Shown: positions 2,939-63,059 of the stretch, one piece after another
Layout: each line of letters starts with the position of its first letter
Numbering within the stretch: the first letter of the stretch is position 1
NCBI GenBank assembly: GCA_050084515.1
Contig: CM114271.1
Coordinates: forward strand, 30,504,001 to 30,568,000
Direction of reading: 5' to 3'
Source of the DNA: Blasia pusilla
Taxonomy: Eukaryota
Length of the DNA stretch: 64,000 nucleotides
Notes under the pieces: generated by a model
Databases searched by the model: none
What the model saw: the letters and a program-made list of their open reading frames with translations, nothing else
Told to the model about the DNA's origin: nothing
Program-made: the position numbers and the translations under genes

Positions 2939-2940
2939 AA

Positions 2941-33347: not shown

Positions 33348-34578
33348 TCACTCGAAAAGTAGGGTATGGGAATCGGGGCTGATGTGCATGCGAGGAGTAA
33401 TCGGTTTCGTGAATTGCTTCAAATTTGAGCAATTTTTGCTAACATCGTCCAGCACCTTCGGTGACAAAGACGTGCAGCAAGCAAGGTTGAGCTCTTCTAA
33501 ATTTCGGCATCCTATAGCTAAGTGTCGGAGCCCTCGGTCTGAGATACACGTCCTTTTCATTTCCAGGTGCCTCAATTTCCCCATGAAATTTGACACCGCT
33601 ATAGCCTCTTCATCACCTCCGGGCGAGTTCGAAGTTCTGCTTGATCCAAATGAAGTCGATTCGTTTTGTTTCAGCATATTACGGCCCAGCGATACGAGAG
33701 ACGGACAATGACGCCCAAAGGCCTCTAGTGCATGTTTGGAGATATTGTAGCAATCACTCACATCCAGTTGCTGTAATCTCGGACACAATTCTGCCAGCTT
33801 CAAGGCAGAATTGTTCGTGACCAGTAAGCTGTTTGGTATAGCAAGCACCTCGAGCCCGGGACACCTGAAACGACTCACAAGAAACTGGTCGTTAGAGAAA
33901 TAGAAAATAAATTCAACAATCACCTCTCAAGTTAAGAGTCTGACTTCATCCTGACGGACTACGCATATTTACAGTTTCACCGAGCATCACTAAAATTTCA
34001 ATTTTCACACCCCAAATTGGAGAAAGGAGGAATTGAAGGACATTTACAGCAATCAAAGTACATGAGAAAGAAGTGGGACAACGCACTGCCAATGACAAGA
34101 ACCGATCTGTAGGAGTTGGCCTAATTGATTGAGTGAAGGGTCTAAGAACGGACCTTTGTGCCAAGTGTTCGATGGCGGCGTCTGAGACATGCATCGTCCG
34201 AAGCTCCCTTAGTTGGCCACAGCTGCGATCTACAACCGAAATCACGAGATGTTCCACTCTAGCCTCACATTCAAACTCCCACCAGTAGTCTTCCTCCATC
34301 TTCTTGTGAAACCACGGCATCATGTCCACCACCATCCAACATGCCGGATCCATGGAGGCCCCTCTCCAGCCCTTACAAACTGAAGGCACTACCCTCATCC
34401 TATCTTCAAATGGAACTCGCTTGAAAATCTCCGCAAGAGCTTCGTCGATAAGGTCAGACCAGTTATGGACGCTAGAATCTACACCACCAGAAGTACCTAT
34501 GGGTTCGGTCTCCTGCGTTCCTCGGCTCGGAATTTCTACTGAATTCATAGGATACATGCCTTCATTTCGTTGCGCCAT
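33348..34578 (-). CDS. F-box/LRR protein, SKIP1/FBW2-like; exons 34578-34154 and 33864-33348, 313 aa
   Basis: F-box WSDLIDEALAEIFKRVP..VPSVCKGWR; VVDRSCGQLREL; LRRs CPGLEVL, CPRLQQLDVS and CRNLEELNLACC. The GT-AG intron 34153-33865 joins in frame (Q-R|-C-P). The start codon is the most plausible ATG. Confidence 0.92.
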
Positions 34579-36509
34579 AATTTGAATATGTACCGAGACG
34601 TTCCCACCAACTTCACCAGATATCAAACTCCACAAACTTGTGCCAGAGTCAATAAAGATCTAATTGCACAACGGGTGCCAGCTACACGTCGTGAGTTCAC
34701 TGAACAGAATTCTGGTTCGTACCGCTTGGAACTAGTCGTATGCAGTGTGGTGCAGAAAATTGGGCCAAAAGTCGGACTCTGCACAGAACAAACAATCAAT
34801 TAGGCAGAAATACCAAAAAACTCTTCATCGTGAGAGGCTTTAGCATTACTCCGTGCGTACTGACTGGCAATCTGGAGCACTCTAGTTGGAGAAATTCGTT
34901 TTCTATCAAAATTGAAAGGCTCCGGTGTTTGGCAGCTACGGAATCCCTAACGTTAGTTTCCAGATATCCAGCGAAAAACTCCACCCACATTGTCACTGGG
35001 AATCGTTACACTGGCGCCTACCTTATTCTGCATCCTTGGTCGATAGCCTTGCTTTGACTAGCACTCAACCAAACCTCGTCTTCAGAGTACATTAAATCCC
35101 ATCATACGAAGCTAGATTTCCGTTCGATTTCCTGATTAAACAAGCTAGGATGCTACAGCAAACACTAAGCACAATCGCCCGAACACCTCGAGCGATGGCG
35201 CTACAGGGAACACTAGATACGTGGTCCCTACATGGAACACTTGAAATTGGCAACAGCAACTGGAACTCGTGTGAGGAAAACTCTCCGAAACACTGCCGTT
35301 ACGCAACACAAGATCTGCATAAGACCCTAAACGCACAGCGTCAAGCCGTCTGAATGTACATGAGACACAATGTCATTTGAGTACCCGCAAGGTTACTATG
35401 AGGAAGAAGACTTCACGAGGCTGAATGAGTGCAGAATGAATCCCGTAAAGGTATGGATGTAGTCCCCATCGCCTTTTAGCTCCGAAAGCTCTCCGAAAGC
35501 TGGTCCTACCTGGTCCCGGCGGGGAGGTCCTGTCTAGACCCTGGCCAAGAACCGGGCCGAGGGCAGGCGTCAAAGCCGAGCGGTCAAAACCCCCAAGTTT
35601 AGATGGGCAGACACAAAGACCTACAGCGGCAGTACAGATTCTAACGGTTCAAGGCGCGGACTGGGGACGGGAATGGGAATGGGAGTTTGGAAACCTCCGT
35701 AGTTCTGATCCAACCCAAAAGGACCACTTGTGGCTCTTTCTGACGTGTCCTATCCATCGGAGAAAGAAAAGGAAGCGTGGCTGCTCATGATCCGATCGTT
35801 TTTTAAATTATATTAATATTTGTATTAAGAATCAGATAAAAAATGTGAACGGACATTAGATGATTAGGTCGTTGTTCATTCCGCAAGTTATGATTTGGTG
35901 TGTTTGGGGAAATATATTAAAAGTTTTGAAGATTAGAGGTTTTATAGTTGGAACTCCAACAAGAAAAATGAAGGAGCCAAATTCTGCTCCGAATACATGC
36001 ATTCTATGGATTTATATTTTCTTTAATGGAAATATTTGGGAATTTACAATCGTCTTTTGATATTTTCTTAAAGCATGTTTCCGAAAATCTAAAAATTATC
36101 ACCTTACCCCTTCTTGTACTCCTTCTATATGTGTGGTCACTTCTTATTTTTAGTAATGCATCTCGGTGGCGTTACAATGTACACAAGCTATGGGGTTGAT
36201 TCATCAAGCCGTTACAATGTACACGAACTTTGGCGTTGTTTCATTGAGCCAAAGTGGTTGGGGGCCGCTCATCTCGTCATTCATTCCCGTCTGACCAACC
36301 ACTAGTGTTCTTATCAAATTTGTGCTATGCTATCAATCTCGTAGCTAGTCGGGTTAGTTTTTGTATTGGCTTACTTTTTCCTATTTTCTTCTTGTATTCT
36401 GTTGTGTGTTTCTTGACTCTTCCCTTCTTGAGTTGTTATTACCCTTATGGGTCATTTTTTGAGGTTTCTTATTATAATAAAGTGGATACTTTGAAAATGT
36501 CACTGCCAA

Positions 36510-40730: not shown

Positions 40731-40874
40731 AGCGCTCACACTATAAAAGAGCGTCTCCCTCCTCTCATATTATAACTTCTTCATTTGCTTCTCTCTCTAC
40801 ACCCATACCAGTCTCAAGCACCGTCCAACTTGGACGCCGGGAACTTGGAGAATGGGACTACTCATAAAGCTAGG

Positions 40875-41258
40875 AGCACCATAGCTCCGTAGCCTCACGA
40901 TCAAAAGGTTCAACAAAGAGATAATAAACTCCCCATGCCAAACTCATTCCCCTAAAGATATACCCTCTCTCTCCAAGTCCTCTCCATGGTGACCTATGCG
41001 CATAGGACACCAACTTGATCCTCAACCAAAAATAGTGAGTCAAGAGCCACTTTTCATGAAACTCTCACATAATTTAATTTACCCAAAATAATACGTTCCT
41101 CAAATGGCCTCCAAATGTGCCAAACGAAGGGAAAAACTGCTCTTACATGTTACTCTACTCCTCAATAGGTCATGTATAACGGGCTCAACCTCTCATCTCC
41201 AAAGTTTCATACAAAAACTCTTTTAGATCCACTCTAAAAACATCAAAAAGATATAACA
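40875..41258 (-). repeat. Diverged solo-like copy of the element 1 terminal repeat
   Basis: Collinear blocks aggttcaacaaagag, tctccatggt.acctatgc, gtcaag.gccact, tacc.aaaata and aaacgaagggaaaa are shared with 12021-12558. Confidence 0.7.
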
Positions 41259-43682: not shown

Positions 43683-43756
43683 TGCTTCCACTGAGAGTTG
43701 AACTCAGGACCTCCCGCTTACTAAACGGGTGCTCTAGCCAACTGAGCTATAGAAGC
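43683..43756 (-). tRNA. tRNA-Thr(AGT): tRNA-Thr (anticodon AGT)
   Basis: GCTTCTA-TAGCTCAGTTGGCTAGAGC-A-CCCGT TTAGTAA GCGGG-AGGTC-CTGAG TTCAACT CTCAG-TGGAAGC-A folds into a cloverleaf with A and B boxes. Confidence 0.96.
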
Positions 43757-44504
43757 TATACCATAGGCGCTTTCTTCTCAGTAAAAATAGTATTTCTGGA
43801 ACTATCCGTCCACCGTAGGAGTGTTGTAGAAGCCCTAAAAAGTATTCTCTTTTCCTTTCAATTCAACGCTACCACGAGAAATTTGAGTATGGGAAGAGGT
43901 TAATAGCGGAAAAGAAAAAGGGGAAAACCACTAAAATATAGGAGGATCGTGAGGTGTAAATGGGATGCACTTTTCTTTCATAAAATATAGTTGTAGGCTT
44001 CACATGTTGGTATAAATAAAGCCTTGTTTTAAAAAACGATTGAGTGCAATTCTTAGATTTGTGAAATGACTACATTCCATTTTTCTTAGTTTCTTTCGTC
44101 ATGGTCAACAAGTCATCTGGCTCTGAAAGACCTCAACATGAAAGTTGTCAGAAACGACGTTCCTGACACAATGGACCTATCCTCAACCTCATCAGACACC
44201 ATGGGACAAAGTTACACTCAAGATAGTCCGCTGGCTCCTACGCCCTATCCACGATAGATCTCGGCCTATCAGCTACTCAGATGTGATAGTTGTCGTGCGC
44301 ATACATATCGCTACACAACATACATCGCTTGTCACATCTACACCACATAACATCGATCTTCCCCACACACGGGTCGATCCACACATGTACAAAAATCAAC
44401 TCATACATATACATGGAGATCACACAACCGCCCCCCTAGCTGGCAGTTGGATCCCCCCAACTCCAGATAGAAAATATCACATCTCTCTAACATGACCTAC
44501 TACC

Positions 44505-44646
44505 CTATACACATCTCGGACACATCCATGGTCTCGTGGGAACCACATCAAGAGGGGGGGTCAGACATGACATATGCCACCCTCGAGAACAACCATCACA
44601 TACCAACATGGTGGCCGCACCCCTCGCAGATTCGCACAACATACAC
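44505..44646 (-). other. Intact PHD finger (C4HC3) at element 2 integrase C-terminus
   Basis: Manual translation gives CMLCESARGAATMLVCDGCSRGWHMSCLTPPLDVVPTRPWMCPRCV*. Confidence 0.93.
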
Positions 44647-47600
44647 CTCAAGCCTGTAGGTACCACTCAGATCCACCGTCCCATCTACGCTCGGAAGATG
44701 ACATGGCGCACACTTGCGCACATGATCCTTCCAAACCATACCATCCCGTCCCTCCAACATGAGGACTCCGGTCGGTAATACCTCGCACACACGTAGGATC
44801 GTACACCCTACAGTGACATCTAGCGTCGTGGGTGCCACCTGGTGTAAATACACATAATCTCCAAGATGAAACCTTCTAATCCCTGGACAATGACCTCCTC
44901 CACGAATGGTCGCTTACCTCAATGTATCTCTATGCTGGGAAATAGCTAAGTTCTCAAAGACCATAGGCATAACTCTACGAAAAACCTCCGCCCTCTGAGA
45001 ACATGCTTGTACCCACACATCTGGATCATCAAGATCTAACACCTCTGCCATGTCACGTCGAATCGCTGCAGGTAAATCGGGCTCTCTCCCAAAGAGCAAA
45101 AATTACGGTGAAAATGACGCCCAGGATGCCTGCCGACTAAAGCGATAACCCATAGCCAACCATGGCAACTGTAGGTCCCACTCCCTCAACTGTCCCCGCT
45201 GCAAGCCATACGTGCGCAATCCTCTCTTCACCGTATGTACCACTCTCTCCGCCAACCCATCCGCCTCAGGATGATCTCTCGACGTGGTGCGGTGATCTAT
45301 GAGCGCTTGATCACACAGGGCCTGAAACTCTCCCTTGAACTCGGTACCCTGGTCAGTCAACACCTCCGCCGGTGCACCAAAGTGACTAAGCACAGGATCT
45401 AGAAACGCATAAGCTGTTCCCTTGCGCATGCTCGCCTTATATGGTAGTGCCACCAACTCTATCCACTTGGAGAAATGCTCCACCATGACCAACACGTACC
45501 TATGATGACGCCCCGTCAATGGAAAATTAAGGTCCCGCAAAGTCTAAACTCCACGGATAACCTAAACCCATAATCGGCAAAGGATGTAACTGCGGAGTGG
45601 GAGCATTGAAGGATGCTCCCACTCTGTCACATACCATACATCTTGCCACAAACTACTGTATCCCAGTATGCATGCCGTGCCACCAATACTGAACCTGGAG
45701 TAAGTTGTAAGTACGCTTTACTCCAAAATGTCCCAACTCCTCATGGGCATGTCTCACTACACGTGCTCGCTGGGAAGGATGAGGTACCACTCGTATCCTA
45801 CCATCTCCCCATACCCGCAAAATATGAGTCCCCTCCCACCTGAATCTCTTGGCTCTCTGTAGGATCCGATCCCGCTCCCTAGCACTCACTGTACTCGCTA
45901 TGATGCCAGTGCGCAAGAACTCCACAACCTCCACGTCGTCATGGATATTGCGACCACCTATCGCCTCCTCACTAACCTCCGGATCCAAAGACTCATAATC
46001 CAACCTCACCACTCGAGTCATCACCTATGGCTGACCTACCATAGTCAACCAACAAAGATAGGCAGATGCATGCCAACCGGGCACCATCTCCTCATCACTC
46101 TCTCCATGCCATCGAGCTCCTGTGTGGTCTGTCTGACTCGGACATGGGTTACGACTCGGACATGGATTACGACTCGGACATGGGTTGCAAATGGGTTACT
46201 CAACCCATTTGCATCATATGGTTCAGCCGACCTGGCCTATGAACCACCTCAAACTCCTGTAGTAATAGAGCCCACCCGGAAAGCTTTCCCGTAAGCTTGT
46301 CGGACTCCTTCAACCACCTCAACGGCTGATGATCACTGATAAGTGTGAAAGGGTTGCCGAATAAATAGCACTTGAAATGTGCCACGGCCCACACTGCAGC
46401 CAAGTACTCTCCCTCGTAGGAGTTGTACTTTTCCTCTTCAATGTTGTTTGATCGGCTCGCGTAAGCGACAACGAACTCCCTCTCCTCGTCATCCCTTCGA
46501 GTAAGCACTGCTCCTAGACCCAACATGCTCCAATCCGTATGTAACAGGAATGGGCGACCCCTAACCGGTCTCTGTAAAATGGGTGAGGACGTCAACCTGT
46601 CCTTGAGCTCCTGAAATGCTCGCTCCCAATCATCTCCCCACAACCAAACCTGATCAAGTCTCGTCAACAAGGTCAAAGACTTTGCGATCGCACTAAAACC
46701 CTTGACATACCGTTGATAGAAGTTCGCCAGTCCAAGAAATGCTCGGACTCGACTCACATTTGTAGGGAGTGGAATCTACGCAATAGCCTCTACCTCGGGT
46801 ATATGGTGTGTCCCAAGTACTTAATCTGCTCCTGAAAGAATCTGCACTTGCCTGGATGTAACTTCAGCCCATGTAACTGCAATCGCCGAAACACCTCCTC
46901 CAAATGTTGCTCATGCTCCTCAACCGTGGAACTGAAGATAAGAATATCATCTATGTAACATCGTACAAAATCCAAGCCAACCAAAATCCTATCCATTACT
47001 CTCTGAAACTCTGCAGGCGCGTTCTTCAACCCAAATGGTAAGAACCGCCATTGATACAAGCAATCTCTCCCAAACCGATCTATCCCCCAGAATGTTGTCT
47101 TCTCCTTGTCCTCCAACCTGATAGGAAGCTGATGATAGCCAACACGGAGATCTAAAGTACTGAAGATCTTTGCATGCCCTACCTCATCAAAGATCTCCTC
47201 AGGAGTAGGCATGGCATACCGATCGGACCTCGTCTGTGGGTTGATAGGACGGTAATCTCCACACATCCGCCTATCTGTCCAATTGCCAAACATATCCTTC
47301 TTTGTCGGCATGATTGTGGCAGATGCATACTCCCCATGTGATAACTCCACAAGTCCTGCCTCCAACAATTCCTGACTCCTGCTCTCAATCAAGGCTCGCT
47401 CCATATCAGAATACTTGTAGGGTCGACGAAAGATCGGCGTATCACTAGCCAACTCAATCTGTATCCCTGGACCCTTCAGCGTACCCAAGTCTCTCATACT
47501 GAAGGCAAAACAACTAACATGCCCTCTCAGAAACCTATGAACTTGCCGTCGCTCTCCTCCTATCAACTTGAGACCTATCATAGGCTGCCAAGTCTCCATG

Positions 47601-47899
47601 GTGACCTTACTCGTAGAGGACGCAACCTCCGGCTTTGGTTGCTATGTAGCAACCCTAGCCACCTCCGCAACAGCCACTCCACTATGATCTCCTACACCAT
47701 GCTCCGCATCCAAAAAATGAACATGTGCTACTCTAGCCGCCTTTGCACTCTCTGCTCAAACAACGTCCCAAGAAGTCCATGGGTGCCTATCTCTCCTCGT
47801 CTCGCCCCCAGCCAATGCCTCTACAGACCCTGTAGGAAATGGTCCAACTCGTGGACGTGACGGCATGGATGACACTCGCATCCGTCTCTCCTCAGCCAT

Positions 47900-48860
47900 A
47901 CTTAGGCTGACTATCCATGTGAGACAGTTGAGGTCCATCGCCTCCCCCAACACCTATCTCTGGGATGCCTTAGTCATCCCTGGCACCGCCGTAGTACTGG
48001 TAGCAAACCCCATGGCGTGCTCGCGCTCATCTGTTGTAGGCTCCTCCAATGCGCCGGTCACCTCATCCCAAATCATGCATGGCCCTCCCTGACGAAAGGC
48101 ATGGGATGCTGGGAAGCTCACCAACGTAGGTAAGGCTACCCTCAACTCCCCCACCCTATTGGCCCTGGCCAACGGTGGTCTATCATCCCGTGTCACCACA
48201 AGAGATCGATGCATTGAGCCCAAAATAGCATCCACTGTGAGATGTGGTGCTCTCTAGACTCCATCGTATGCTCGACTAAGTACCTCTGAAGGTATCAGGT
48301 TCGTCCACCACAGTCGTGGACGATGGGCACGTGATCCAACTCTCGCCGCATCTTATAACACAGCAGGTCCCAACCAGGACCTCACCTGATGCACACTCGT
48401 CATCACACGTGCACGAGTGTCTCCCAACAACGGCACGTTCTCCAAAATGTACGTTGGAGAACATGTCTGACTCTCTTGCAAGTGTTGTACTACTCGCAAC
48501 ATCTCCCAAAACATCCCTGACCTCGGATCCTGCAATCCAAATCCTTGGCCAGTTGATGAATGACCCTGACATGGCCATCCAGCAATCACCAAATGAATGG
48601 TGCCAACTTTATCCAGATCTTGCGCCCCCACCAAAGAGATGTCGGCGGGTAGTGTATGCTGATATCCACGTACTGCAGATACCGGCAACAACTCAGGATA
48701 CCTCTGGACCAATCGTGCCAGGTGACGTAATGATACTCGCCGCGCAGTCTCATCTCTCTCCACATAAAGGTAGTGATGCATCCGTATGCCCGCCTGCAAT
48801 ATTGCAGCAAATCTGGTGATAATCCCTCCGAAGAGATCTAATACCCTAACACCCTCCTTT
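47900..48860 (-). pseudogene. DNMT3-like C5 cytosine methyltransferase domain in element 2 pol (catalytic motifs intact, 3 in-frame stops)
   Basis: I RVLDLFGGI; II YVERD; III ADIS; IV LVIAGWPCQG; SGMFWE; VI ILENV; VIII AHRPRLWWTNL; IX EREHAMGF; X VLGEAM. Confidence 0.95.
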
Positions 48861-51800
48861 GGGCACTGCCACATAACGGGTGTGGTATCCAGTGGAGTCA
48901 ACGTCTCCACTCCAAGAGCCCGATTGCCACGTGACTCTCGCTGCTCCGGGATAAAAACATGACTCCACGCCTGCCTCACGAGGTCGTCGGCACTCCTATG
49001 TAGCTCTGGAGTCGTACCCCACAATGGTGAAGAGGTCTCGCCAACATGGGAAGAGACACCGGCCATGGCCTATCTCTCTGTGGAACTATCCGCTACTGGG
49101 ACATCCTCCGCATGTACATTCCCCTCCAACAACTCTCCTCGCCAGCTAACACTACCTGTGAAAGCCGCCAACGTGGTCACAGACTCGCCTCGTGATTCAC
49201 CACCTCGTCCTGCAAACTGCACGGGTAACTGACTCATCTGGCCGTCACTTGACCGCCACCTTGGCCGATAAGCAATGATTTCCTCCTTGAAGTCCAAGAT
49301 GAATCATAGGGGATATAACACTGTACTCCCCACGAACACATCGTACGACTCAGCTGGTGTCGTAATCGCACGTGTGCGCACCATAGCACTATCCGTCGCA
49401 TGCTCTGGCTGGACTCTGACATATATATTGCGTGGGTGACACGCCCCCAATCGAGGTCTGTATCTAGAAGGGACAAGGGTCAATGTCGGCCTTCCGTAAC
49501 CCCAACGCTAAACACGCGGCCTTCCCTAATATCAAGGGTTGCGCTTCCGAATCAAGTAGGACGCGCTGCGGGTGGTATACTGTCCCCGTCGGACTAACCA
49601 AGCGAAATACTCTAGCTCGGTTATCCAGTAACACAACTCCAGGTGTCACCATTGCTCGCTCTATGGCCGGTCGAACTGGCATATTGTGATACCCACAATT
49701 TTGTACTTTTGAAGAAATATACCTTTTTATTCAAGGAAGACTTGTATATACATTATGATTTTGATTATTATATATTATTATGGGGAGGAATGAGTAAGAT
49801 TAAAATGAATCACGAAGCTCCAAAGACAAGGCAGAGAGATAGAAAATCAAGGATTTGCCTAAGAGGTTAGGAGAATAAAATAACGAAGTCTCAAGACCCA
49901 GCAAGAAGCTTCGGAATGACAACGAAGCTCTGTCTACGAAGTGCTTTGCTCTATAACGAAGCATGAAGAAGAAGAGAAAGAAGTACTTCGCTCTTGTACG
50001 AAGCACGAAGAACGAACCACCTAGAACAAGAACAAAGAATGGAGTGCTTCGTCTTCAGATCAGGAGAAAGAGCTTCGTCCTCAAGCAAAGCAAAAGAGGT
50101 CCAGACTTAGCAGCGAAGCAAAGCCAAGATTGACAATGATTTCAAGCGACACATAGTTAGAACAATTAGAATAGGAAAAGACGCAACCCTTTGTATCAAA
50201 TTGGTAGTTATAACAGTTTTGTTCTGCGGATTCATAGGGATCATAGGAAAAGCAAAGAGCACCATAGATCTAGGTAGTTACAAATGTTGAAGAGCCATCA
50301 GCTTCATAAAAAACGCTTCGAATCTTTGGATCACTCCTCCTTCAGAGAGTATTTAAGAAGCATAGAAGTAGCTATCATTATCATTCTCTTACGATGTCCT
50401 CATGCTGTAGGAATGGTCCAAGCAAGGGAGTAGTACCCTCTCGAGCTTGTATACACTTTGAAGCTTTTTCATTCTTGACGGAATAGTGAAGCAATCATTC
50501 ATTCATTCTGATGTGCGATGCTTATGTTTGAGTATTCTTATTGGGTCTGCAGAGTGAAGAGTGAATTAGGCGAACCTTTCTCATCAATATCATAATCAAC
50601 ATAAAGATTGTAGGAAATCTGTTTGACAGAGAGTAGCCTGCCGAGACGGATTTAGTTCAAAAAGTAGGAGAAGCCAGCTTTCATGTTGAGGTCTCTATGA
50701 GGTTTCTTGATATCGAGAGGAAATCTACTTGAGCATGCCGTTAACTCCACTAGAGAGAATTGAGAAAAGAAACTTTGGTACTAAGAAAGATCTGAAGATA
50801 TTGATAAGACATTGAATATAAATCATACACATTTAAATACAACTATTACGACAGAATTGTAATTTCGAACTCTCTTTTCATCAAACAATGATCCTCTTGG
50901 GGATTAAACTTATTAAATGACTGTAAAATAGAAACTCTTGTACATTACACATATCTACCAACTTCGCCGCCGCCGCATGCCATGACTCTGTGGGGAACGT
51001 CCCGAGCACCAGCTCTGAGGGAAAGTCCACCACCTCCTCAACTACCTCTGAACAAGAAGCAGTCATCTCTCCACATTCACACAACGTGGCGGCCATCGGA
51101 ACACCTCAGCTGGTCCAACTCCCAACGTCGCCAACTCTATGGCGGAAAATAGTGGATTCTGACTCACTCTAGTGGCCACCTCTAACACTATGGTCGACAC
51201 TGACTCTACTCGAGCCGGCATAGGAGTTGTCACTCCAACTCCTCGTTACGTCGACGTAGGTAAGACCATCTGCTATCTCTAGCTATCCCCCTGAGACAAT
51301 GGATGAAATAAGATAACAACCGGTTTGCTGCATTGGTGCTAGAAAAGATAGAACAATTAATTAGTATTGTCAAAGAACCAGTCGCCGAATGGTGCTTCGC
51401 CCATGAACGTCAGTTGTACTTGGTGATGACTTGGTACTTCTGTTTATGGGAGGAAAACCTGGCAGGAAGATTAAGAGCACCTGCACACTCCTGTAGGCTT
51501 TAGGAATTAGGAAGATCTAATTTCCCTCCATGGACCCCTACCTTGTGGCGATCGTGGGTACAAAAGCAAGCTCCCGAATCCCAGAAGGGACTCATGGAAG
51601 TCTCCCGGCCCTCTTTGCGAGATCAGCGAGCTGATCGACGCAATAAGCAATAAGAAGATCATCCGTCTTGGAGACCGCCGGGGGTGTCTCCCAGTCTTCG
51701 TCTTTGCATGAAGCCCAAGAGCAGGAAGAGGGACAGGAATACGCTCCCCACCACCTCTCCTGTCAGTTCGTAGTCGGACGAAGAGTCAACCTGGAATCCC

Positions 51801-51905
51801 TTTGGGGACTCGGGGGACTCGGAGCCGACCAAATCAACTAGATCGGAACCGCTTCCTCCTCCCTCCCGAGCATCAAGCCCGGGACCCAGCAGCAGATATT
51901 TCCCA

Positions 51906-54900
51906 ATGGCCAACACTAGGAAGACGCTGCTAAGATACCCCACGTTTGCAGCGGGACGGCGAGATGATGTTGACAACTTTGTGCTTGAATTTAACCATGT
52001 ATCCAAGGCTAATGGGGAAGGGTTAGAGGAGAATTTGTTGCGAGTCTTTCCTGGCATGCTTAAGAAGCAAGCAAGCCAATGGTACGAGGGTCTCAGAGCG
52101 GACGTCACGGAAACTTGGAAAAAGGTACTGGAGGCCTTTCTTCATGAGTTCCGTGACTTGGAGTTCGAGGACAGGCTTCTAACAAATCGTCACGACCTGA
52201 AACGTAAAAAGAAGGAAACTCTCATGGAATACACCCAAAGGTTTCAAAGCGTGGTGAATAAACTTGAACACACTACTACCTCATAATTGGTAGATTGGTT
52301 TGTGTCGGGACTGTCCAAAGAAATGGACCGGTACTACCGGCGAGGCCAACAAGATTCCCTGGAAGCAGTCATAGCCTCCGCAGAGGCATACGAGGCCTCA
52401 AAGAAGTCCCGTAAAACACGAAGACGGCGTCATCAACGACAAGGTTCTTTGCAAACAAGTGCTTCGTCGGAGGACGAAGCGTCTTCCATGACACAGAATC
52501 CTCTATTGGGGACACTTCGGAGTCCTCGGACTCCGGAAAAGATTTAAAATCTAAGCGGAAAAGAAAAAGCACGCGCCACCACTCGCCTTAGCATCGAAGG
52601 AAAACCCGACCAACAAAGCACCTTCCGCAGCGGTCGGAAAGTCCAGTAAGGGGGACAACGGGGAAGGCAAGCAAATCTGCCATTGAAGAGCTAAGTAAAC
52701 AAATGGCCGAATTGAAGGTACATCTGGCGGCCCAGAAGGATCCCAGAAGACGACCAGGTCTGATGAGGCCCAACATCTGGTGCAATACCTACGGAACCCA
52801 AGGGCATACTGCTCAGGAATGTCATACTCACAGAGATTTACGTTGGATCCAAGAAGATCCAACTATAGAAGAAGGGTGGTATGAACCCGAACAGTGGGAA
52901 GGGTGCTATGCAATCCAAGCTGTGCCACCACCTAATCCCGGACGAAGTTGGATCATCCAATATGTGCCTCCAAAATACAGGGAACAGAGACCCCTAAGAC
53001 AGATTATGGGCGCGGCAGCCTTCACGCCACCCATAAAAAGGAATTGTTGTTATAATTGCGGGGCAGCTGACCATTGGGCTAATAATTACACCACGAGGTA
53101 CAAGAATCAGACCGCTGGGACCCCCAAGGCAAGGAAAGATGCTTCGTCTTCGCGCGAAGCTAAAGACCCCAAGACGAAAAGTGTCAATGTCTTCCGCGCC
53201 GGGAAGGTCATCCTAAAAGGTGATGTTGACCCGGCCTTCGATCGAAGTCACCCTAAGTACTTCCATCAGGATATTGAGGACCAGGTTCGGGCTCAAGTGT
53301 GCCAGGACCAAGGGCCAGAATGGAGGCAGACCACAGAGAAGACGAGAACCGGAACGATTCCGGCCATGCAAGCCATCGTGACGTCACCTCTGGTCTTAGA
53401 AGCCTACGACTTACTCAGGGACTTGGCGTCAACCCCGGCCAATATAACCCTGCTGCAATTATTAATGCATAACCCTGTGTACGGCAAACTTTTGCAGCAG
53501 TGGAAGATAAGCCGCATAAAACCCAAGAAGTCTGCAAAGAATCTACTAGTAGTGGATCTGTTCCGTATCGAAGTGGAAGATTTGGGAGCCCCAGAGGTAG
53601 AAGTGGAGATTGAAGGATACACCATTAAGAAGGTCCTCATTGACTTAGGAAGTGGAATTAACATTATGACGGAACAGACAGCCCGGGCACTAGGATACAC
53701 GGAGTACGAGCCCACCGACAAGTATCTGCGGTTCGCGGATCAGTCCCGGAAGTGACCCCTTGGACAGCTCACTCAAATCCCGACCATGCTTGGCCGGGTG
53801 CTATTTCTATTGGACTACTTAGTATTGCAGCCCCTAACAGCCACTGGCTATCCTTTGCTTATTGGAAGACCCTAGCTGTACGATGCGAGAGTGACTACGG
53901 ATTGGAAAAGGAGACGATTCACGTTCTAGGCTCCGGACCTGGTCTCAAAACGATTCATCAAGCTGTCGTGGAAATCACGACCACCCCAAGGAGAAACGCC
54001 ACCAACCGATGAAGGCTATACGTCAGATCAAGAGCAGACTACAGCTACTAAGTCCTCCTCCAATGTGTATTATTTAGAATGTTACGAGATAGACGAGGAG
54101 TCAGTACCTAACAAACAGAAGTCGACCCGAGAGGAAGAGAAGCTTGGACATAGCACTTTCCAATTAACAGAAAATATGGTTCAAGAAAAGGACTACGTAG
54201 AGGTCTTAATTACAGGTCGGAAGTCTCTACGACTCTCGGCGGATTTGTCTCCAACCAAACTCATTAAGTATAAAAGGTTATTGTTTGAGTATTTGGATGT
54301 GTTTGCATACTCCATGGATGAAATGACAAGCATTCCAGCACGGTATGGTGAACAGTGAAATGACCTAAAAGAAGGTGCGGTCCTGGTACGGATGAGGCAG
54401 TATCGCCTCAACCCGAAGTACTCGTTGTTAGTCAAGGACAAAATCGACCAGCGTCTCGAGGCAGGAATAATTTATCCTCTGTTAAGTAGCGAGTGGGTGT
54501 CTCCCATTGTGATTGTACCCAAAAAAAAAACGGGAAAAATCAGAGTGTGCCAAGATTATCGAAAACTGAATTCGGCCACCTTAAAGGACCATCACCCCCT
54601 ACCTTTCACTGACAGTATTTTGGACAAAGTTGCTGGCCACGAGCGTTATACTTTTTTGGATGGATACTTGGGTTATAACCAGGTATCCATACGAGAAAAA
54701 GATCGGGCCCTCACAACTTTCACCACGGACTGGGGAACTTTTGCGTATCGTGTGATGCCCTTTGGGTTGTGCAATGCGCCAGCTACCTTCCAACGGATGA
54801 TGATCTCCATCTTCCAAGAGTATCTGCGGAAGTTTGTTGAAATTTTCCTGGATGAATTTTGTATCTTCAGTACAGAGGCCGGACACTTGGAAAAATTAGA

Positions 54901-56662
54901 ATTAACCCTCGCTCGTTGTCGCAAAGTGCATTTGTCCCTCCATCCGGAAAAATCGTATACTGCCATGAAACAAGGGATTTTGTTGGGGCACAGAGTGTCG
55001 GCTCAAGGAATTGAAGTCAACAAGGCCAAGGTGGATATTATCGTCGCATTGGAACCACCCACCAATCTCCAAGAATTGAGAGGATTCTTGGGACACGTTG
55101 GATATTACCGACGGTTTATTAGGGATTATGCGGTGAAAGCAGGAGCTCTTACCGCATTACTTAAAAAAGCTATTGGATGGGAGTGGACCCCACCCTGCCA
55201 AGCGGCATTTGATGCCTTAAAGGGAGCATTGCAAAAGGCTCATGTACTTCGGTCCCCCGATTGGACCAAACCCTTCCACGTATATGTGGACACATCCTCG
55301 TTTGCCAATGGAGTGGTGTTCAGCCAACTGGATGAGAACAAACATGATTTCCCGGTTTACTATGCAGGCCGTCAACTATCTTCAGCGGAGCAAAAATATA
55401 CAACTACCAAACGAGAGGCGTTAGGCATGGTCTTCTCGTGTAAAAAGTTCCGACACTATTTATTAGGGTACGAGTTTGTCTTCCATGTAGATCATTTTGC
55501 GCTCCGACCATTAATGGTTAAGGCGGACCTGTCGAGTATCGGCGATGCTTGGAAGCAGAAGAAATCCCCCATGTCATCAGAGCCATGCATGCGGCTGATT
55601 CTGGTGGACACTACGCTGTAAAAAATACCGTTAAGAAAATCTTGGCCGCACGTTATTGGTGGCCAACTATGTACAAAGATGTGGGTAACTTTATCCAAAG
55701 TTGTGATGCATGCCAAAGAGCAGGTCGACCAACGGCTACCTCAAGGTGGCCTTTGATACCCATCATGCCGCTAGCGCCGTTTGAAAATTGGGGTATTGAC
55801 TTTGTGGGCCCCATTTCCCCTGCTACTCGCCACACAAGGCGAAAATATATTTTGATAGCTACCAACTATTGTACCAAGATGGTGGAGGCCGGCCACGCGC
55901 AAAGATGATAGTGAGGCTGTGGCCAAATTTTTATACGAAATGATTATCACCCGATATGGCTGCCTGTTGGAACTAGTAAGCGATCGAGGCACCCATTTCC
56001 TGAACCAGACTATTCCGTCTTTAACGAAATACTTTCTCATTAAGCATCAGAAGACCACGCCCTACAACCCTAAAGCCAATGGGTTGACTGAAAACTCTAA
56101 CAGACTGATCTTCCGGATATTGAATTGATTGACGGTAACGTATTCCTATGATTGGGACATGAAAATTTCCGCGGCATTGTGGGCATACCGAACAGCCAAG
56201 AAGGTTACTACAAAGTATACCCCGTTCTTCCTGACTTATCGCGTTCATCCCTTAACACCTATTGAAAGGGCTTTGCCCACTTATCGAGTGTTGGAAGGAA
56301 CGAGAACGGAGGGAGTCGGCGAAGTTTTCCAAGGAAGGAATGAGACCTTAGTTGCATTGGAGGAAGCACCCACGTTGGCATTATGCCAGACAAAACATGT
56401 GCAAAACAAACGAAAGCAACATTACGATCGACATCTCCGGCCGCAATCTATAAGCGTTGGGGACTTGGTGCTGTTGTACGATAATCGGCGGCTAAAGTTC
56501 CTCGGAAAGTTAAAATTAAACTGGATGGGACCCTACCGGGTATTGGCCATCTATGATAACAGATCACTACAGTTGGGGACCTTACAGGGTGAATCCCTGC
56601 CCACTCGTGTCAATGGGATGCATGTTCGGTGGTATTATGAGCCTCAACCCTACCCGGACTGA
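51906..56662 (+). pseudogene. Nested element gag-pol (gag, PR, RT, RH, IN with GPY/F)
   Basis: CYNCGAADH knuckle; VLIDLGSGINIM; RVCQDYRKLN..MPFGLCNAPATFQR..FLDEF; WGIDFVGP, SDRGTHF, WMGPYRV; stops and frameshifts. Confidence 0.93.
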
Positions 56663-56910
56663 AACCGGAGGGAAGGGGTGAGCGACTGCCTGAAGCTTCG
56701 CAAAAGGGCGAAGCGCGAGGATGCTAGAACTTTGCAGAAGCGCAAAGCATAAGGTATGGGATCTTTGGAGAGGTGCGAAGCGCGAGATTTTTTGAGCTTC
56801 GCAAAGAGGCGAAGCGCCAAACTGACTGTTGCCGTCCCGACGCCAACGCCAAGAGCCCGCATAACGCTGGGACTATATAAGCATCCCTACTGAACCAGAC
56901 GGGTATTTTC

Positions 56911-57711
56911 ATGGACGGAGTCACCCCAAAGTTGCGTAGCAGACCAAAGCGGGGCATTCACCGAGATCGACCTACCAGCATGCCTCGTGAAGACTCCACG
57001 CCCATTTTACGAAGTGCGGTCATGCCTATGGTCAAGCTGTCACCAGAGTTGGTCAAAGCGCTTGAAGAGCGATCTTTGGCGACTTTCTTTCAAGCAAATT
57101 GGACCTTGACATCCAGGGAACTCCTCGGGGAGCTTCGTTCCTTGACTACAGCAGCCAAGTTTCGAAGAAAGGGTCTTCAATATCGAGCTTTACCACAACA
57201 ATGGACGCCGGATGATTGGCGAGCAACTCATATGCTCCAGGCCGCTCCAAAGTACGAGTATGACACCAAACTGCTGGTAAAGCACGAAGATTTGTTGGCA
57301 CTCGGCTGTGAAACGTCTGATCGCCTTGGCAGGAATCGCTACAAGGCTACTTCGTTGTCACCGCCATTATTTGGACAGGTTTGCAAGCATGTGATGACTT
57401 TGTTTTATCCTGCTCGTTCTTACTACCTCACGAATAAGCTCGTCAAGATGTGCTATATCCTTTGGAATCAACACCTGGACCCCGAAGCACCGGGAGTCGA
57501 CTTCGCTTCTTTTGTGGACGGGCACGTACGCGCAATTCTCGAAGAACTTCATCCAAACACAAAGTCATTCATGTCTCCTTTTTTAATCCATCTATATATT
57601 CATAAGCAGGAATTGACGGCAAACGAGGCGCTAGATTGGTCGCAAGTCACTCCCGTCCGCTTGCTAAGAAAGAGCGGAGCGGTCCCTAGTGGGAGCCGCA
57701 AAGTCACATCG
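56911..57711 (+). CDS. Extra 3' ORF of nested Gypsy element, unknown function, truncated
   Basis: About 267 open codons downstream of integrase, with tatataa at ~56874; runs into element 2 sequence at ~57712. Confidence 0.6.
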
Positions 57712-59384
57712 AGGCACCATCGATGGTGTGTGTAGTGCCTCCAACAATGTGAATGACTGTGGAACCCTGGCCTGCCGCCCATTGGTCCCCTCTGGTGGGT
57801 CAATCTCAACTCCACCTCTCGGTGGCTCGGTGCCTCTCATAGCACCCGGAGTCACCACTACAGCTGCCTCAACCTAGGCTGCACTACACATAAACCCCAT
57901 ACAAGCGAGATCCTCACCTGGGTCAGGGTAAGAGGTGGAAGTTGGAGTCACACTAGCTGCTTACAGCTTTGTGCCTTCCCTAAGGTGCATCATGGTCATG
58001 GCAGCAATCCTCTGCTCCAACTGATCGATGCGTGAGTGAAGTGCCAGCTCTGGTGCTCCTGCTCCATCTCCTCTGGTTGGTGGTGGTCCTCTACCACCAC
58101 ATCCAGGAAGGACTCCCCGACCTCCTCTAGGACGACCGCCCCTAGGCCCTCGGCCTACTTCTGGATGTGCCCCTCGGCGAAGGTCATAACATCTATCCCT
58201 AGTGTGACCATATCTGTGGCAATTGTCACACTGGTGCTCTGGTGGGGCCATCCTCTGTGACTCCTGAGCAATCGGAGGTGCTGGTGGTCCTCTCCCATGC
58301 TGTGGGCAGTCTCTCTGCCTATGGGCCCCTCCACATGTCCAACAAGACCACATCGGTCCCTGCTGGGCAACATATGTAGGTACGGGTCGTTGCCTCATAG
58401 GCTCACGGTACCCGCCTTGCTCTCTGGGCACACCGACTCGCTCCCGTGGTACTGGTGCTCACTGTGGCACCTGCGGGGTTACGGTCGCTCGTGGACCCAT
58501 CGACTCTCGAGAAAATCCAGCGGTCACTACCTGCTCCTCACTCATGTTGAGCTCAATACGCTTAGACAACTCAAAGACCACCTTCAATATGGGCTTCGCT
58601 GTGTGAATCAACACTGCATCTCGGACTCTCTTCTGTAGTTCTCGGTCTAGAACCCCGTACCAATACTGGACTGACTGCGCCTCAGTCACTCCATACGTAG
58701 CAATGATCAGCTTCCTCATGCGTATGAATGCCTCTCTTAGACTCTCACCTGATCATCGCTGAAAATCCTGTAGACTCTTCATCTTGTCGATGCGTACACC
58801 CTGGTAGCTCTTCCCCAATTGTCGGAAGAACTCCACTGTGGGGCTGAAGCTGGGTGGCCCTCTACCACCAAAGTCTCTGCCACATCGCCTGTCTCACTAC
58901 CCTCCTCTCCATCTAGTCTCCGGGCTGATGGTGTGGGTCTCTCTCCTCTCACAATCCCATCATATGCCTCGCGACCACAAGTGGACACATACCCTGGAGC
59001 CCAATACATCCTCCAGGCATCGATCTCTACTGAATATATTGATCGAAACTCCATGTAATCATCCATCGGAGGACCCTCCAAGTGCTGGAACAACCCCTTC
59101 CATGCCATGAAAGGGTTGAACCGTGTTGGGGTCCATATCTCCTGGAAGTTGCACCACGTGTCGAACTCCTGGATAAAATCATCTAAGTCGATGGTGCCCA
59201 CTGCACTCGAGAAACGACGCATGCCCCGATGGCCCATGTCGTCCATCTCCTGCCAAGTAATATTGCCTTCGTCTGCGCTCTTGTCACCAGACCCAGTGTC
59301 TAGTGATGACGATCCAGCCACGGATGGATGTCGAGGTAGCTCCCCACTGGTAACCCCTTGGTGTCTCACTTCACTCCGTGTCAC
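57712..59384 (-). pseudogene. gag: Element 2 gag
   Basis: GMRRFSSAVG..FDTWCN..FNPF; zinc knuckles CWTCGGAHRQRDC and CDNCHRYGHTRDRC; RGG-rich segment. Confidence 0.9.
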
Positions 59385-61002
59385 ACCACTACCACTGGTA
59401 GCACTACCCCGTTCTTCTGAACCCTGGAAGAACGTCGTGATGACAAACCCTGTCTCACCCGCTCAAGCACTCAGACTCACCGAGAGTCTCTCACACTCCT
59501 CGCTAGCTCACCTATGCTAATTTCAATCCCGTGATGACACAGCCGGCCTCACGCACACTCAACACTCGGGCTCACCATGAGCCTCCCAACTGACTCACCT
59601 AACCTAGCGACACTCTCGGTTCATACATGCAACCCCTACGCGGCAACCACTGTATATCCACCAACATGCTACACATGAACAGAATCTACACTCGTCACCA
59701 TGACTGCACCCACCTAGCACCAGCTACTATCCGATACCCAGCACTCTCAATCACACACGACAAGTGCGGAAAAAGGGACTCGAATGGGTAACCTGATCAC
59801 GCCCTCCAACCTACTGCACTGTCAGCATGCACTCCCCCAGGTGACACGGCAACCTTTGCAACACAACACTCTCCTCGACCAGCACGTCGATCCTCCCGTC
59901 AACAGATGCAGACAACCCGTTGGCATTATGCGCACTACCCCTCCATCGTCAACTCTCGCAATGCCCTGTCGTGCCCAAAAACATCATGTCACGCAAACCT
60001 CTCCGTCCATCCCCACACACGGCATGTAACCTGACTCACCCTGGTCGGCTCCACTCCTACCACGTACACACTGTCTCTACCACGTTGCCCATGCGCAACC
60101 ACGTCCAAAGGGGGGGAAAGAGAAATAAATGCGGGAGGGGGGGGCTTGGCCTGCACCCCTATGGGCCTCCCCAACTTTGGGGAAAGAAATAAATGCGCTG
60201 GGGCGCGTCGCCACCCACCGTCTGCCCGTCGTCGTTCACATGTCTGCGCCCGCCGACCTAAACGCCTCCTGCTCTTTCCCGACACTCTCACTCACATACA
60301 CCCGACGCCCTACCGCACACTACACTCGGCTGCTATCCCGCGTCAATCCGTACAAGCAAAATCTGAAAAAAAACGGACAGCGCTTCCGCCCACGGCCTTC
60401 CAAACACAAAAATGACTGACACCCGCAATACACGCGTCTCTAGGGGCTCCTGACCAAGGCAACTTGCTTGCCTACCTACAAACAACGAATTACCACCCGC
60501 CCCCTGACATCTTTCTCATGTAAAAAATAAAGAGTAGTAAAAACGGCACACCCGGCCTAAAACTCCACTCCTCAATCTACATCGGCATATCGAGCCTCGT
60601 CCACCCTGTGCTATCAAGGAATCCGGACTCTAGCATCCTAGTCCTATCTCACACACATACAAGAGAGGTGCTCCAACGGCCCAACATGAGAAAGATGGCT
60701 TAGGAAATCCATCTTCCTCTCTTATATAGGGTTGGGAAGAGCCAAAAGGCTCTTCCCCTAAAAATAGCCCTCCCCTTGGTAACCTGCGCGCACAAATTAC
60801 CAAGGGCGGGTGACCTGGTCAACAAGTCATCTGGCTGTGAAAGACCTCAACATGAAAGTTGTCAGAAATGACGTTCCTGACACAATGGACCTATCCTCAA
60901 CCTCATCCGACACCATGGGACAAAGTTACACTCAAGATAGTCCGCTGGCTCCTACGCCCTATCCACGATAGATCTCGGCCTATCGACTACTCATATGTGA
61001 TA

Positions 61003-62990
61003 TACAATTCCAATCGAGGATGGGGATTTCCCTTTATTAAACGCCTTCTACGGCCGGAATTGAATATTAGGATCCAATAAGACTCATAGTAAGTTTGGCT
61101 CCAAATGACGTTCAGCGGACGCAACAGTTTGGGACACAATCAGAACTAAGGTTCCGATTCTACATTTGTTGCCAACCTATTGGGATCTAAGGAGCAGGCC
61201 ATTCAGACCTATAGTTCCAAGTCAAGAATGGGGTTTATTATTACCGGACGCCTTCTCGGGCCGGAATTGGATCTTAGGTTCCAATTGGACAATCAGAACT
61301 TAGGTTTTGATTCTACATTTGTTTCCGACCTATTGGGATCTGTGGAGCCAATCCGGGGCCATTCGGGATGACAACTTCAATCGAGGATGGGGATTTCCCA
61401 TTATTGGACGCCTTCTACGGCCGGGATTGGATCTTAGGATCCAATTGGACTTAGAACAAGTATGGCTCCAAATGACTTTCAGCGGGCGCGGCAGTTTGGG
61501 ACACAATTTAGAACTTAGGTTCCAATTCTACATTTGTTGAACACATAGGGATCTTAGAGGCAGGCCATTCCGAACTACAGTTCGAGTCGAGGAAGGGGAT
61601 TTCCCTTTACCACACATCTTCTGAGGCCAGAATTGGATCTTACGATCCAATTGGACTTAGACTACGAATGGCTACAAATGACATTCAGCAAGCGTGGCAG
61701 TTTGGGACACAATCAAAACTTAGGTTCTAATTCAACATTTATCTAAGACGTAGGAATGTTAGGATCAGGTCATTTAGTACTACAGTTCTAATCGAGGATG
61801 GGGAATTCCCTTAAACAGACGCCTTCTACAGTCGGAATTGGATCTTAGGATCCAATTGGACTTAGACTAGTATGGCCCAAAATGACGTTGAGCGGGCCCG
61901 GAAATTTGAGAAAAAATCAGAACTTAGGTTCTGATTCTACATTTGTTTCAGACGTAGGAATGTTAGAAGCAGGCCATTCAGAACTATAGTTCCAATCGAG
62001 GATGGGGAATTCCCTTAAACAGACGCCTTCTGCCGCCGGAATTGGAACTTAGGATCCAAGTGGACTTAGGCTAAGTATGGCTCCAAATGACGTTCAGCGG
62101 GCACGGCAGTTTGGGACACAATGAAAACTTAGGTTCCGACTCTACATTTATCTTAGAAGTAGGAATGTTAGAAGCAGGCCATACCAAACTACAGTTCCAA
62201 TCGAGGATGGGGAATTCCCTTTAAGAGATGCCTTCTACGGCTGGAATTGGAACTTAGGATCCAAGTGGACTTAGGCTAAGTATGGCTCCAAATGACGTTT
62301 AGCGGGCGCGGAAATTTGGGACACAATCAAAACTTAGGTTCTGATTCTACATTTATCTCAGAAGTAGGAATGGTAGGAGCGGACCATTTAGAACTACAAT
62401 TCCAATCGAGGATGGGGAATTCCCTTTAACAGACACCTTTTGCGCAAGGTTGCATGTGGAAAACGTCCGTGTCCGTGGACTTATGTCCATCCTATAGAAG
62501 GACTTGTCCGTATGGGCCCCATATTTTCCTTCTTTCTCATTCCCTTTACTTGCCTTCATGTTCTATACTCCTCCATTTCGTCCTCCCTCCACCTCCACTC
62601 CCTCCTCCCTCATTGCTCCTCTCATCCTTGCCTTGCCTTCCATCAAGGACTAAAAGTATGGGTCCCACCTCTTGGAACCCATGTCCGTGGATATGTCTAG
62701 ACTTATCTGTCCATGTCCGTCCTAAGGACTTTTCCGTTTTTATGCAACCATGCTTCTACGGCCGGAATTGGATCTTAGGATCCTATTGGAATTAGACTAA
62801 GTATGGCCCCAAATGACGTTCAGCGGGCGCAACACTTTGAGAAATAATCAGAACTTAGGTTCTGATTCTATATTTGTTTCAGACGTACGAATGTTTGAAT
62901 TTGACCAGACGTCATTTGGAGCCATACTTAGTCTAAGTCCAATTGGATCCTAAGATCCAATTCCGGCCGCAGAAGGCGTCGGTTAAAGGG
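61003..62990. repeat. Tandem satellite, ~204-205 bp unit
   Basis: atcgaggatgggga recurs at 61791, 61995, 62200 and 62405 and in earlier diverged units; the last ~90 bp (62905-62990) is inverted. Confidence 0.95.
62445..62752. mobile_element. hAT-type MITE (308 bp) inserted in the satellite
   Basis: TIRs caaggttgcat / atgcaaccatg (10/11 match); 8-bp TSD cttttgcg / cttctacg; internal gtccgt/ggac subterminal repeats. Confidence 0.8.
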
Positions 62991-63059
62991 ATCAGAAAAA
63001 TCCTCATTAAATCAATTTGGAGAGCTTGCTTTAGGGTCTAGTAAATAGCTTGGAACTTA

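Follow-up and report, generated by a model that had tools for sequence, protein, structure and literature searches.

This study concerns a 64,000-nucleotide stretch of the genome of the liverwort Blasia pusilla (GenBank assembly GCA_050084515.1, contig CM114271.1, positions 30,504,001 to 30,568,000 of the forward strand), referred to as the window, and two retrotransposon copies within it, elements A and B, each carrying a DNMT3-like cytosine methyltransferase domain (hereafter DNMT) in its own coding frame. A preliminary description, made from the sequence alone, had presented element B as a Gypsy-type retrotransposon with such an enzyme, and this identification is borne out by Pfam domains and by rankings among the structures of the PDB. 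As read from the sequence, the coding part of the element consists of a first open reading frame (ORF1) for Gag, protease (PR) and DNMT, ended by a UAG codon that is conserved in the family, and of a second one (ORF2) for reverse transcriptase (RT), RNase H (RH), integrase (IN) and a PHD finger.

Two methyltransferase-bearing elements in the window

Element B is a degenerate Ty3/Gypsy copy of about 44.1-61.0 kb on the minus strand, with two later insertions within it. Its parts are listed below from its 5' end; P numbers denote proteins used for comparison.

60816-61002, minus strand: 5' direct repeat A1, 187 bp, 96.8% identical to 44102-44288 (self-comparison)
57964-59462, minus strand: gag (tblastx to the gag of element A; ORFs)
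about 51300-57700, bounds approximate, plus strand: nested Gypsy element without DNMT, ~6.4 kb, between gag and protease
50950-51243, minus strand: N-terminal part of the protease region (tblastn with P0004 and P0002; tblastx to element A)
about 49700-50950, no strand assigned: AT-rich insert of ~1.25 kb that splits the protease region (gap between P0004 residues 70 and 65 on the window)
49416-49697, minus strand: aspartic protease core (tblastn with P0004, frame -3)
47894-48862, minus strand: DNMT3-like C5 methyltransferase catalytic domain (PF00145; best PDB matches DNMT3B/3A; family alignment)
47636-47644, minus strand: in-frame UAG (47644-47642) followed by CAA CCA, the predicted ORF1/ORF2 boundary (sequence; conserved in the family)
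46790-47641, minus strand: reverse transcriptase (RVT_1, E 3.4e-31)
46200-46775, minus strand: RNase H (RT_RNaseH, E 2.4e-29)
44917-46024, minus strand: integrase with frameshifts, comprising a zinc finger (45653-46024) and the rve core (45103-45543) (Pfam; tblastn frames)
44505-44666, minus strand: PHD finger at the integrase C-terminus (PF00628, E 5.7e-12)
44289-44420, minus strand: B1 segment adjoining the 3' repeat, with the family-conserved sequence end
44102-44288, minus strand: 3' direct repeat A2 (self-comparison)

In the gag region of element B, the ORF at 57961-58458 contains one canonical CCHC knuckle by direct reading, and no Pfam match to this gag was found at E<=0.01. The nested plus-strand Gypsy element was recognized by its RVT_1 and RNase H domains at 54359-55621 (Pfam); homology to element B picks up again on either side of it, at 57712-57768 and 51094-51243 (tblastx), and self-BLAST detected no terminal repeat pair for 51300-57700. 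No telling repeats were seen in the ~1.25-kb insert at 49700-50950. The protease core, whose relatives P0004 and P0038 match Asp_protease_2 (Pfam), reads DSE in place of the expected DSG and lies in a different frame from DNMT, which places a frameshift near 49416-49432.

Translation of the minus strand from 49303 to 46790 gave one frame throughout with six internal stops, and three stops fall within the DNMT domain (48353-48355, 48254-48256 and 47954-47956). The preliminary description had held that this part of the element is a single frame broken only by point stops; the shared frame and the ORF coordinates were reproduced, but the stop at 47644-47642 is conserved across the family. Likewise, its placement of the methyltransferase inside Pol, between protease and RT, was correct as to position, but the domain is the C-terminal one of a Gag-PR-DNMT frame, and the protease here lies in another frame. 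Further downstream, RT, RNase H and integrase of element B occupy differing frames.

The methyltransferase identity of the domain is supported by several comparisons. The ORF at 48353-49069 matches PF00145 (DNA_methylase) with an E value of 4.3e-10 and 40 bits against a curated cut-off of 22, the profile check that had been proposed from the letters, and the read-through translation of the element B DNMT scores 38.2 bits. All the motifs quoted in the preliminary description are present and in the canonical, unrearranged order that it gave: I (FGG), IV (with the PCQ cysteine), VI (ENV), VIII (RxR), IX and X. They correspond to conserved columns of the family alignment, and the catalytic PCQ, ENV and RxR together with the FGG that binds S-adenosylmethionine are invariant or nearly so across 40 aligned relatives. 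Compared with all PDB chains, the window domain had 34 matches, 29 of them to DNMT3A/B/C (best E 1.8e-6), four to DRM2 and one to M.HaeIII. A family profile built from ten members ranked DNMT3A (7.9e-17), DNMT3C (9e-15) and DNMT3B (1.4e-14) highest, and its positions 74-378 align colinearly to residues 6-265 of DNMT3A, unlike the rearranged DRM, which was matched at 1e-10 over positions 72-198 only. DNMT2 (6e-6) and M.HhaI (1.4e-5) were also found with this profile, which retrieved no DNMT1 or chromomethylase from the PDB at E<=0.01. The AHR-R-WW-NL and ERE-MGF motifs of the window domain align with those of the DNMT3 structures, in agreement with the initial reading of AHRxRxxWxNL and ExERxxGF as DNMT3 motifs. 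A protein-cluster search with a Marchantia relative returned generic PF00145 clusters only, the best of them mostly from Streptophyta.

Element A (~2824-12560, minus strand) is of the same kind and layout as element B, and older. Its parts, again from the 5' end, are the following.

12018 to about 12554-12560, minus strand: 5' repeat A1, starting TGTCACG, 82.9% identical to 2938-3436
7124-8290, minus strand: DNMT domain in one frame with seven stops, 49% amino-acid identity to element B, E 1.8e-120 (tblastn)
6862-6864, minus strand: UAG, then CAA CCA, at the same conserved site as in element B
3753-6730, minus strand: RT, RNase H, integrase and PHD finger, 72.5% nucleotide identity to element B over RT-IN (tblastn)
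2824-3569, minus strand: 3' end, with B1 at 3449-3569, A2 at 2938-3436 and B2 at about 2824-2938

The PHD finger of element A is still recognizable (E 9.8e-9, Pfam), and its repeats, of ~535 bp, are arranged in the order A-coding-B-A-B, as they are in three of the loci recovered from metagenomes (L003, L061 and L076); in element B a B2 repeat was searched for and not found. The A repeat starts with TGTCAYG and the B repeat ends in a ~40-base stretch, kept between the window and distant loci, that closes with ...CACGACA, so that the element termini are TG...CA. The sequences on the two sides of element A, AGACT and TGACT, differ at one base and may represent a 5-bp target duplication. A search for a primer-binding site of the tRNA-iMet type gave seven matches at up to two mismatches against five expected by chance, none of them beside a repeat. 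The observed/expected ratio of CpG, 0.65-0.74 in the elements and 0.65 in the background at 13-43 kb, is uninformative on depletion.

The stretch at the end of the B repeat (44289-44330 and 3449-3480 in the window; L003, L061, L076) is common to elements whose long repeats are unrelated, and 16 of its bases agree without a difference in elements A and B; it probably acts in cis as an end sequence. A fragment at 40860-41173, ~67% identical to the long repeat of element A, is perhaps a solo repeat of a related family.

Relatives, selection and the conserved stop

A word-indexed protein search returned 65 relatives of near the length of the domain and 25 longer ones. All 11 organism-named relatives of near length came from bryophytes (Calypogeia fissa, Sphagnum, Marchantia polymorpha and Riccia sorocarpa), 14 of the 17 named longer ones were Marchantia "hypothetical proteins" of 950-1330 amino acids, and the nearest named DNMT relatives were those of Calypogeia and Marchantia. 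An exhaustive profile-free scan yielded 2695 representatives at E<=1e-3 and 223 at E<=1e-30, many of them polyproteins of 1000-3400 amino acids. Mapping of the window domains onto the 112 fetched proteins of at least 700 amino acids distinguished two domain orders, PR-DNMT(-RT-RH-IN) in 31 and RT-RH-DNMT-IN(-PHD) in 76, the remaining five having DNMT only. A metagenome scan matched 285 stretches, of which 98 encode a relative; 80 loci were retained, and the order PR-DNMT-RT-RH-IN-PHD was seen among them. The DNMT domain lies in one frame in 51 of these 80 loci and in both window copies. Thus the earlier claim that the methyltransferase belongs to the coding frame of the element and is not a random insert is supported, element A and the 98 metagenome stretches excluding a chance origin, and the domain is kept in other members of the family.

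In a DNMT tree of 175 rows, a branch with SH-aLRT 99 parts all 28 rows typed as PR-DNMT and both window copies from all 82 typed as RT-RH-DNMT, so that the position of the enzyme in the polyprotein marks two separate lineages. The named members of the window lineage are Klebsormidium nitens, four Closterium strains, liverworts and Sphagnum; those of the RT-RH-DNMT lineage are the chlorophytes Scenedesmus and, weakly, Haematococcus. A smaller tree (32 rows) separates chlorophytes, K. nitens, Closterium (100/99) and a bryophyte clade (99/97), which contains one clade per bryophyte genus and includes the window copies.

Three observations on these relatives may be added. Within the RT-RH-DNMT-IN lineage (P0072, P0081, P0086 and 73 others) a PHD finger is usual after the integrase, and a Tudor domain occurs once. 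One protein of Closterium sp. NIES-54 (P0244) combines a DNMT of the window lineage with a Copia-type RVT_2 domain (PF07727), and could be a Copia-borne version or a gene-model chimera. Metagenome loci L001-L050 belong mostly to one family, in which most copies are dead; L006, the sole locus of that family in the tree of named taxa, falls within the Sphagnum clade.

The selection analysis that the preliminary description had called for was carried out on the DNMT domain of the 51 one-frame metagenome loci and both window copies, using the Nei-Gojobori ratio of nonsynonymous to synonymous divergence (dN/dS). Divergent copies gave ratios of 0.10-0.23, in the purifying range: 0.13 for L052-L053 (dS 0.26), 0.12 for L052-L057, 0.10 for L053-L057, 0.19 for L001-L009 and 0.20 for L006-L009, together with 0.21 between the two window copies over 318 codons, where dS is saturated (1.65; dN 0.35). 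The corresponding ratio for RT-RH in L052-L057 was 0.05, and the DNMT and RT-RH trees of the same 19 copies have their starred branches in common. The DNMT domain is inherited with the element under purifying selection, less constrained than RT. This selection, along with the co-divergence of DNMT and RT, shows that the domain serves the element.

Near-intact loci consist of two ORFs in one frame. In L052 these ORFs, at 976-5082 (protease and DNMT detected) and 5086-8226 (RT-RH-IN-PHD), are separated by a single TAG, with 1369 open codons ahead of it and 1047 beyond, and L057, L009, L006 and L053 are alike. We took a census of the stop in all copies retaining the RT N-terminus, namely 57 loci and the two window copies. 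A stop stands directly before the first glutamine codon of ORF2 in 52 of these 59 copies (41 TAG, 11 TAA and no TGA), and is followed by CAA or CAG in all 52. Both window copies read ACA TAG CAA CCA (stops at 47644-47642 and 6864-6862), and the Marchantia gene models terminate at this conserved stop. The sequence UAG CAR YYA has been described as the type I readthrough signal of tobamoviruses in the available portion of Firth and Brierley 2012 (PMC3542737); both window copies match it exactly, with the downstream ORF in frame.

Transcription of the family was assessed in three RNA-seq runs carrying the same species label, in which 525, 619 and 609 reads fell on 44000-49750 at a likeness of at least 92%. 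Sibling copies of the element are transcribed. A DNA run with the same label placed 78,122 contig pieces on the stretch, indicating that the family is highly repeated in that species.

The surroundings of the elements hold few other features. A tandem repeat array (61003-62440 and 62753-62991) begins exactly at the outer edge of the 5' repeat of element B, with inverted copies further on, and a tRNA-Thr(AGT) gene (43683-43756, minus strand) lies 346 bp from its 3' end. Of host genes, the window clearly holds just one, an F-box/LRR gene of at least two exons at 33348-34659 (minus strand), of which an exon has 16 matches; all nine that are organism-named come from liverworts (Marchantia paleacea, Riccia and Calypogeia), at 54-66% identity. 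By this one gene the host would most likely be a liverwort, and one distinct from those three. A Pif1-type helicase fragment (21740-22327, minus strand), possibly of a Helitron, and an ORF with a zf-C17orf113 domain (19066-19491, plus strand) are likely remains of other transposons.

Weighing the readings of the element

We consider it likely that element B is a degenerate copy of the Gypsy-DNMT3 lineage, in which a Gag-PR-DNMT frame is followed, after the conserved UAG CAA CCA, by RT-RH-IN-PHD in the same frame, and from this organization we infer readthrough and a role of the enzyme in the particle. ORF2 would be expressed via leaky termination, as in the type I readthrough of plant viruses, so that each Gag-PR molecule would come with a methyltransferase and RT-IN would arise solely as a fusion present in the minority. 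The closest PDB chains of the PHD finger are the PHD fingers of CHD4, KMT2C/D, PHF12, KDM5B, PHF21A, DPF3, AIRE and UHRF1. Many such PHD fingers read the unmethylated H3 tail. This suggests that integration may be steered to H3K4-unmethylated chromatin, the PHD finger reading the state of the histone H3 tail. The enzyme, for its part, would travel with the particle and methylate new cDNA or the integration site; methylation of new cDNA has been proposed for retrotransposon-borne enzymes (PMC5890265, as far as its text was available).

Several observations weigh against this reading. The element B copy is dead and unable to make any of these proteins: the ORF1 stretch 49303-47645 has five stops besides the conserved one, in addition to the frameshifts and the two insertions. 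In element A, motif IV reads PY-stop, not PCQ, and the catalytic cysteine is lost. The DNMT3-like label reflects rankings among solved structures and the published K. nitens tree, and no PWWP or ADD domain was found, Pfam recognizing Asp_protease_2 and DNA_methylase in ORF1 of L052 and only DNA_methylase in Marchantia P0223. As to transcription, most RNA reads are 90-95% alike, which assigns them to sibling copies, and only 9-12 per run reach at least 99%. In nearly all of them the first mate lies on the plus strand, and they would represent the sense strand of the element assuming the usual stranded library type; their depth is 0-3 over the DNMT bins and about 4-20 over RT-IN. Not all dN/dS ratios are low: the median over 1031 usable pairs, most of which are dead copies from a single family, is 0.62, and the near-identical L001-L006, the closest of the intact pairs, gives 0.87 (dS 0.06). 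The high ratios among near-identical dead copies are explained by the dominance of neutral decay after insertion. The remaining points of this kind concern catalysis and readthrough, and are given below with the alternatives that they favour.

The alternative that survives best, although we regard it as clearly the less probable, is that DNMT has been kept for another role: methylation of host DNA around insertions, methylation of RNA, or service as a non-catalytic module of Gag-PR for DNA binding or assembly. According to the available text of PMC5890265, de novo methylation in yeast was not obtained with the corresponding K. nitens domain, an outcome that its authors call inconclusive, human DNMT3B having failed too, and RNA methylation was raised there for a LINE-borne DNMT; moreover, the place of the domain as the last one of the Gag-PR frame suggests that it is made in the proportions of a structural protein. 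Yet near-invariance of PCQ, ENV, RxR and FGG in the 40 relatives would be unexpected if the domain were non-catalytic, and among solved structures DNA methyltransferases come closest to it, the tRNA enzyme DNMT2 ranking far lower.

Somewhat less likely still, the conserved stop may be a true terminator, ORF1 and ORF2 being separate proteins and RT-RH-IN-PHD being reached by splicing, reinitiation or a separate transcript. Ogre elements, for instance, splice around a stop. The full CARYYA hexamer is found in only 6 of the 52 copies with the stop, the other 46 ending in C (CAA CCC or CAA CTC), and no conserved RNA structure was found after the stop, where there is only a weak hairpin (-4.3 kcal/mol) with one compensatory pair. 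One Closterium gene model (P0267) passes from DNMT to RT without a stop, as if the junction were handled differently in some lineages. However, ORF2 is always in the frame of ORF1 and begins at the codon directly after the stop; the stop is never UGA and is invariably followed by a glutamine codon; and elements A and B agree in all 12 bases around it in spite of their divergence over RT-IN. Expression of ORF2 through readthrough of the UAG is on this sequence evidence probable. A search of the literature for readthrough in plant long terminal repeat elements, and for a PHD finger after a Gypsy integrase, found nothing usable.

It is very improbable that DNMT is a passenger without function, derived from a piece of a host gene that was captured a single time and has been in neutral decay since. 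The median and closest-pair ratios given above would fit such a course, as would the fact that only 6 of the 51 metagenome loci with a one-frame DNMT have no stop, but they are set against the low dN/dS between divergent lineages and the persistence of the domain in elements of Klebsormidium, Closterium, liverworts and Sphagnum. An assembly chimera, or a host DNMT3 gene nested into a Gypsy element in this genome only, can be dismissed almost entirely: element B does carry two unrelated nested insertions nearby, but element A, dozens of the metagenome loci and annotated proteins from six genera or more show the same order and frame, there is no intron, and the DNMT and RT trees are congruent.

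Significance and comparison with known systems

Beyond the degenerate Gypsy-DNMT3 copy itself, we put forward a wider proposition, which is tentative and which we would not rate as probable: that such elements are no peculiarity of Klebsormidium but an old streptophyte lineage, which entered land plants or persisted in them (in liverworts and Sphagnum) and continues to be transcribed there, with DNMT as the tail of every Gag-PR molecule and RT-IN-PHD obtained only by readthrough, so that many enzyme copies would enter each particle and the element would itself methylate its cDNA or the sites where it inserts. If this were true, the PHD reader and the methyltransferase would make up a split equivalent of the host DNMT3, carried by the element. 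Transposons are normally the targets of methylation, and a transposon-borne de novo enzyme reverses this relation. The published case from the plant lineage concerns a single alga, whose enzyme was not shown to work. To this are added here a lineage in land plants that includes Marchantia, a genus with a good genome and genetics; an enzyme tied to the Gag-protease frame ahead of a leaky-looking stop; and a second, separate lineage with the enzyme next to the integrase. The proposition is testable in a genetic model, Marchantia polymorpha, which has annotated copies. Caution is also called for in counting DNMT3 genes in bryophyte genomes, where many hits are transposon ORFs.

In the literature searched there was no report of DNMT-carrying retrotransposons in land plants or bryophytes, in keeping with the preliminary description, which knew of no such architecture there, although a mention in supplements or in the Marchantia genome paper is possible. 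They are not mentioned in the available portions of PMC11982613, PMC6453930 or the Marchantia methylation papers (bioRxiv 10.1101/363937, PMC5784723), and later papers, to the same extent, speak of "streptophytes (Gypsy-DNMT3)" with land plants unnamed (PMC12344493; bioRxiv 10.64898/2026.05.21.726589). Nor was a description of the probable readthrough organization found in this literature.

Judged by its sequence and domain order, the window element belongs to the published Gypsy-DNMT3 kind. Its closest known counterpart is KnitGypsy-Dnmt3, for which the accessible text of de Mendoza 2018 (PMC5890265) reports intronless, unrearranged Dnmt3-like domains in the Pol ORF of a Gypsy element of K. 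nitens, a Ka/Ks below 0.2 and repeats in the order A-coding-B-A-B as in DIRS elements, and notes the combination of split direct repeats of DIRS type with a DDE integrase. The KnitGypsy-Dnmt3 sequences form a divergent Dnmt3-related clade there, the acquisition being placed in the K. nitens lineage. In the K. nitens protein GAQ93235.1, zf-CCHC is followed by Asp_protease and then by DNA_methylase; its BLASTP alignment with the window domain, of 350 amino acids, has 34% identity (E 3e-52), and it falls on the same side of the DNMT tree. Thus both elements have the Gypsy backbone PR-RT-RNase H-DDE integrase, the gag-PR-DNMT order, purifying selection and A-coding-B-A-B repeats, whereas their hosts are a charophyte alga and a liverwort, respectively. 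The conserved UAG and the PHD finger of the integrase are unmentioned for KnitGypsy-Dnmt3 in the text of PMC5890265, and may appear in its figures or supplements.

Retrotransposon-borne cytosine methyltransferases are also known from Symbiodinium, as SymbioDIRS-Dnmt3 and SymbioLINE-Dnmt (PMC5890265, accessible text); with Klebsormidium, these confirm the mention in the preliminary description of such enzymes in dinoflagellates and charophytes. The SymbioDIRS enzymes are Dnmt3-like and performed de novo CG methylation in yeast according to the same text. These elements belong to other classes (DIRS with a tyrosine recombinase, and LINE) and represent independent acquisitions, whereas the window element has a DDE integrase. 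Among host enzymes, DNMT3A/B/C provide the closest solved catalytic domains, colinear with that of the element including the AHR-R-WW-NL and ERE-MGF motifs; the element domain differs from host DNMT3 and DRM in being without PWWP/ADD and encoded in a mobile element, and DRM is rearranged, with its profile match limited to the part given above.

Relatives of the order RT-RH-DNMT-IN-PHD, such as the 'pol' of Scenedesmus sp. PABB004, share with the window element the Gypsy backbone, the PHD finger that follows the integrase and a DNMT homologous at 32-40% identity, but in these the DNMT lies between RNase H and integrase in a single long ORF, and in the window element between protease and RT. Chromoviruses likewise carry a chromatin-reading module at the integrase C-terminus that is thought to steer integration (bioRxiv 10.64898/2026.05.21.726589, in the part available); theirs is a chromodomain, that of the window element a PHD finger (PF00628). 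Finally, the tobamovirus type I readthrough (PMC3542737, in the portion cited above) resembles the window case in the UAG CAA CCA and the in-frame downstream ORF, and differs from it in that the window case is a retrotransposon, not an RNA virus; the hexamer of most relatives of the window element ends in C, and their readthrough is putative.

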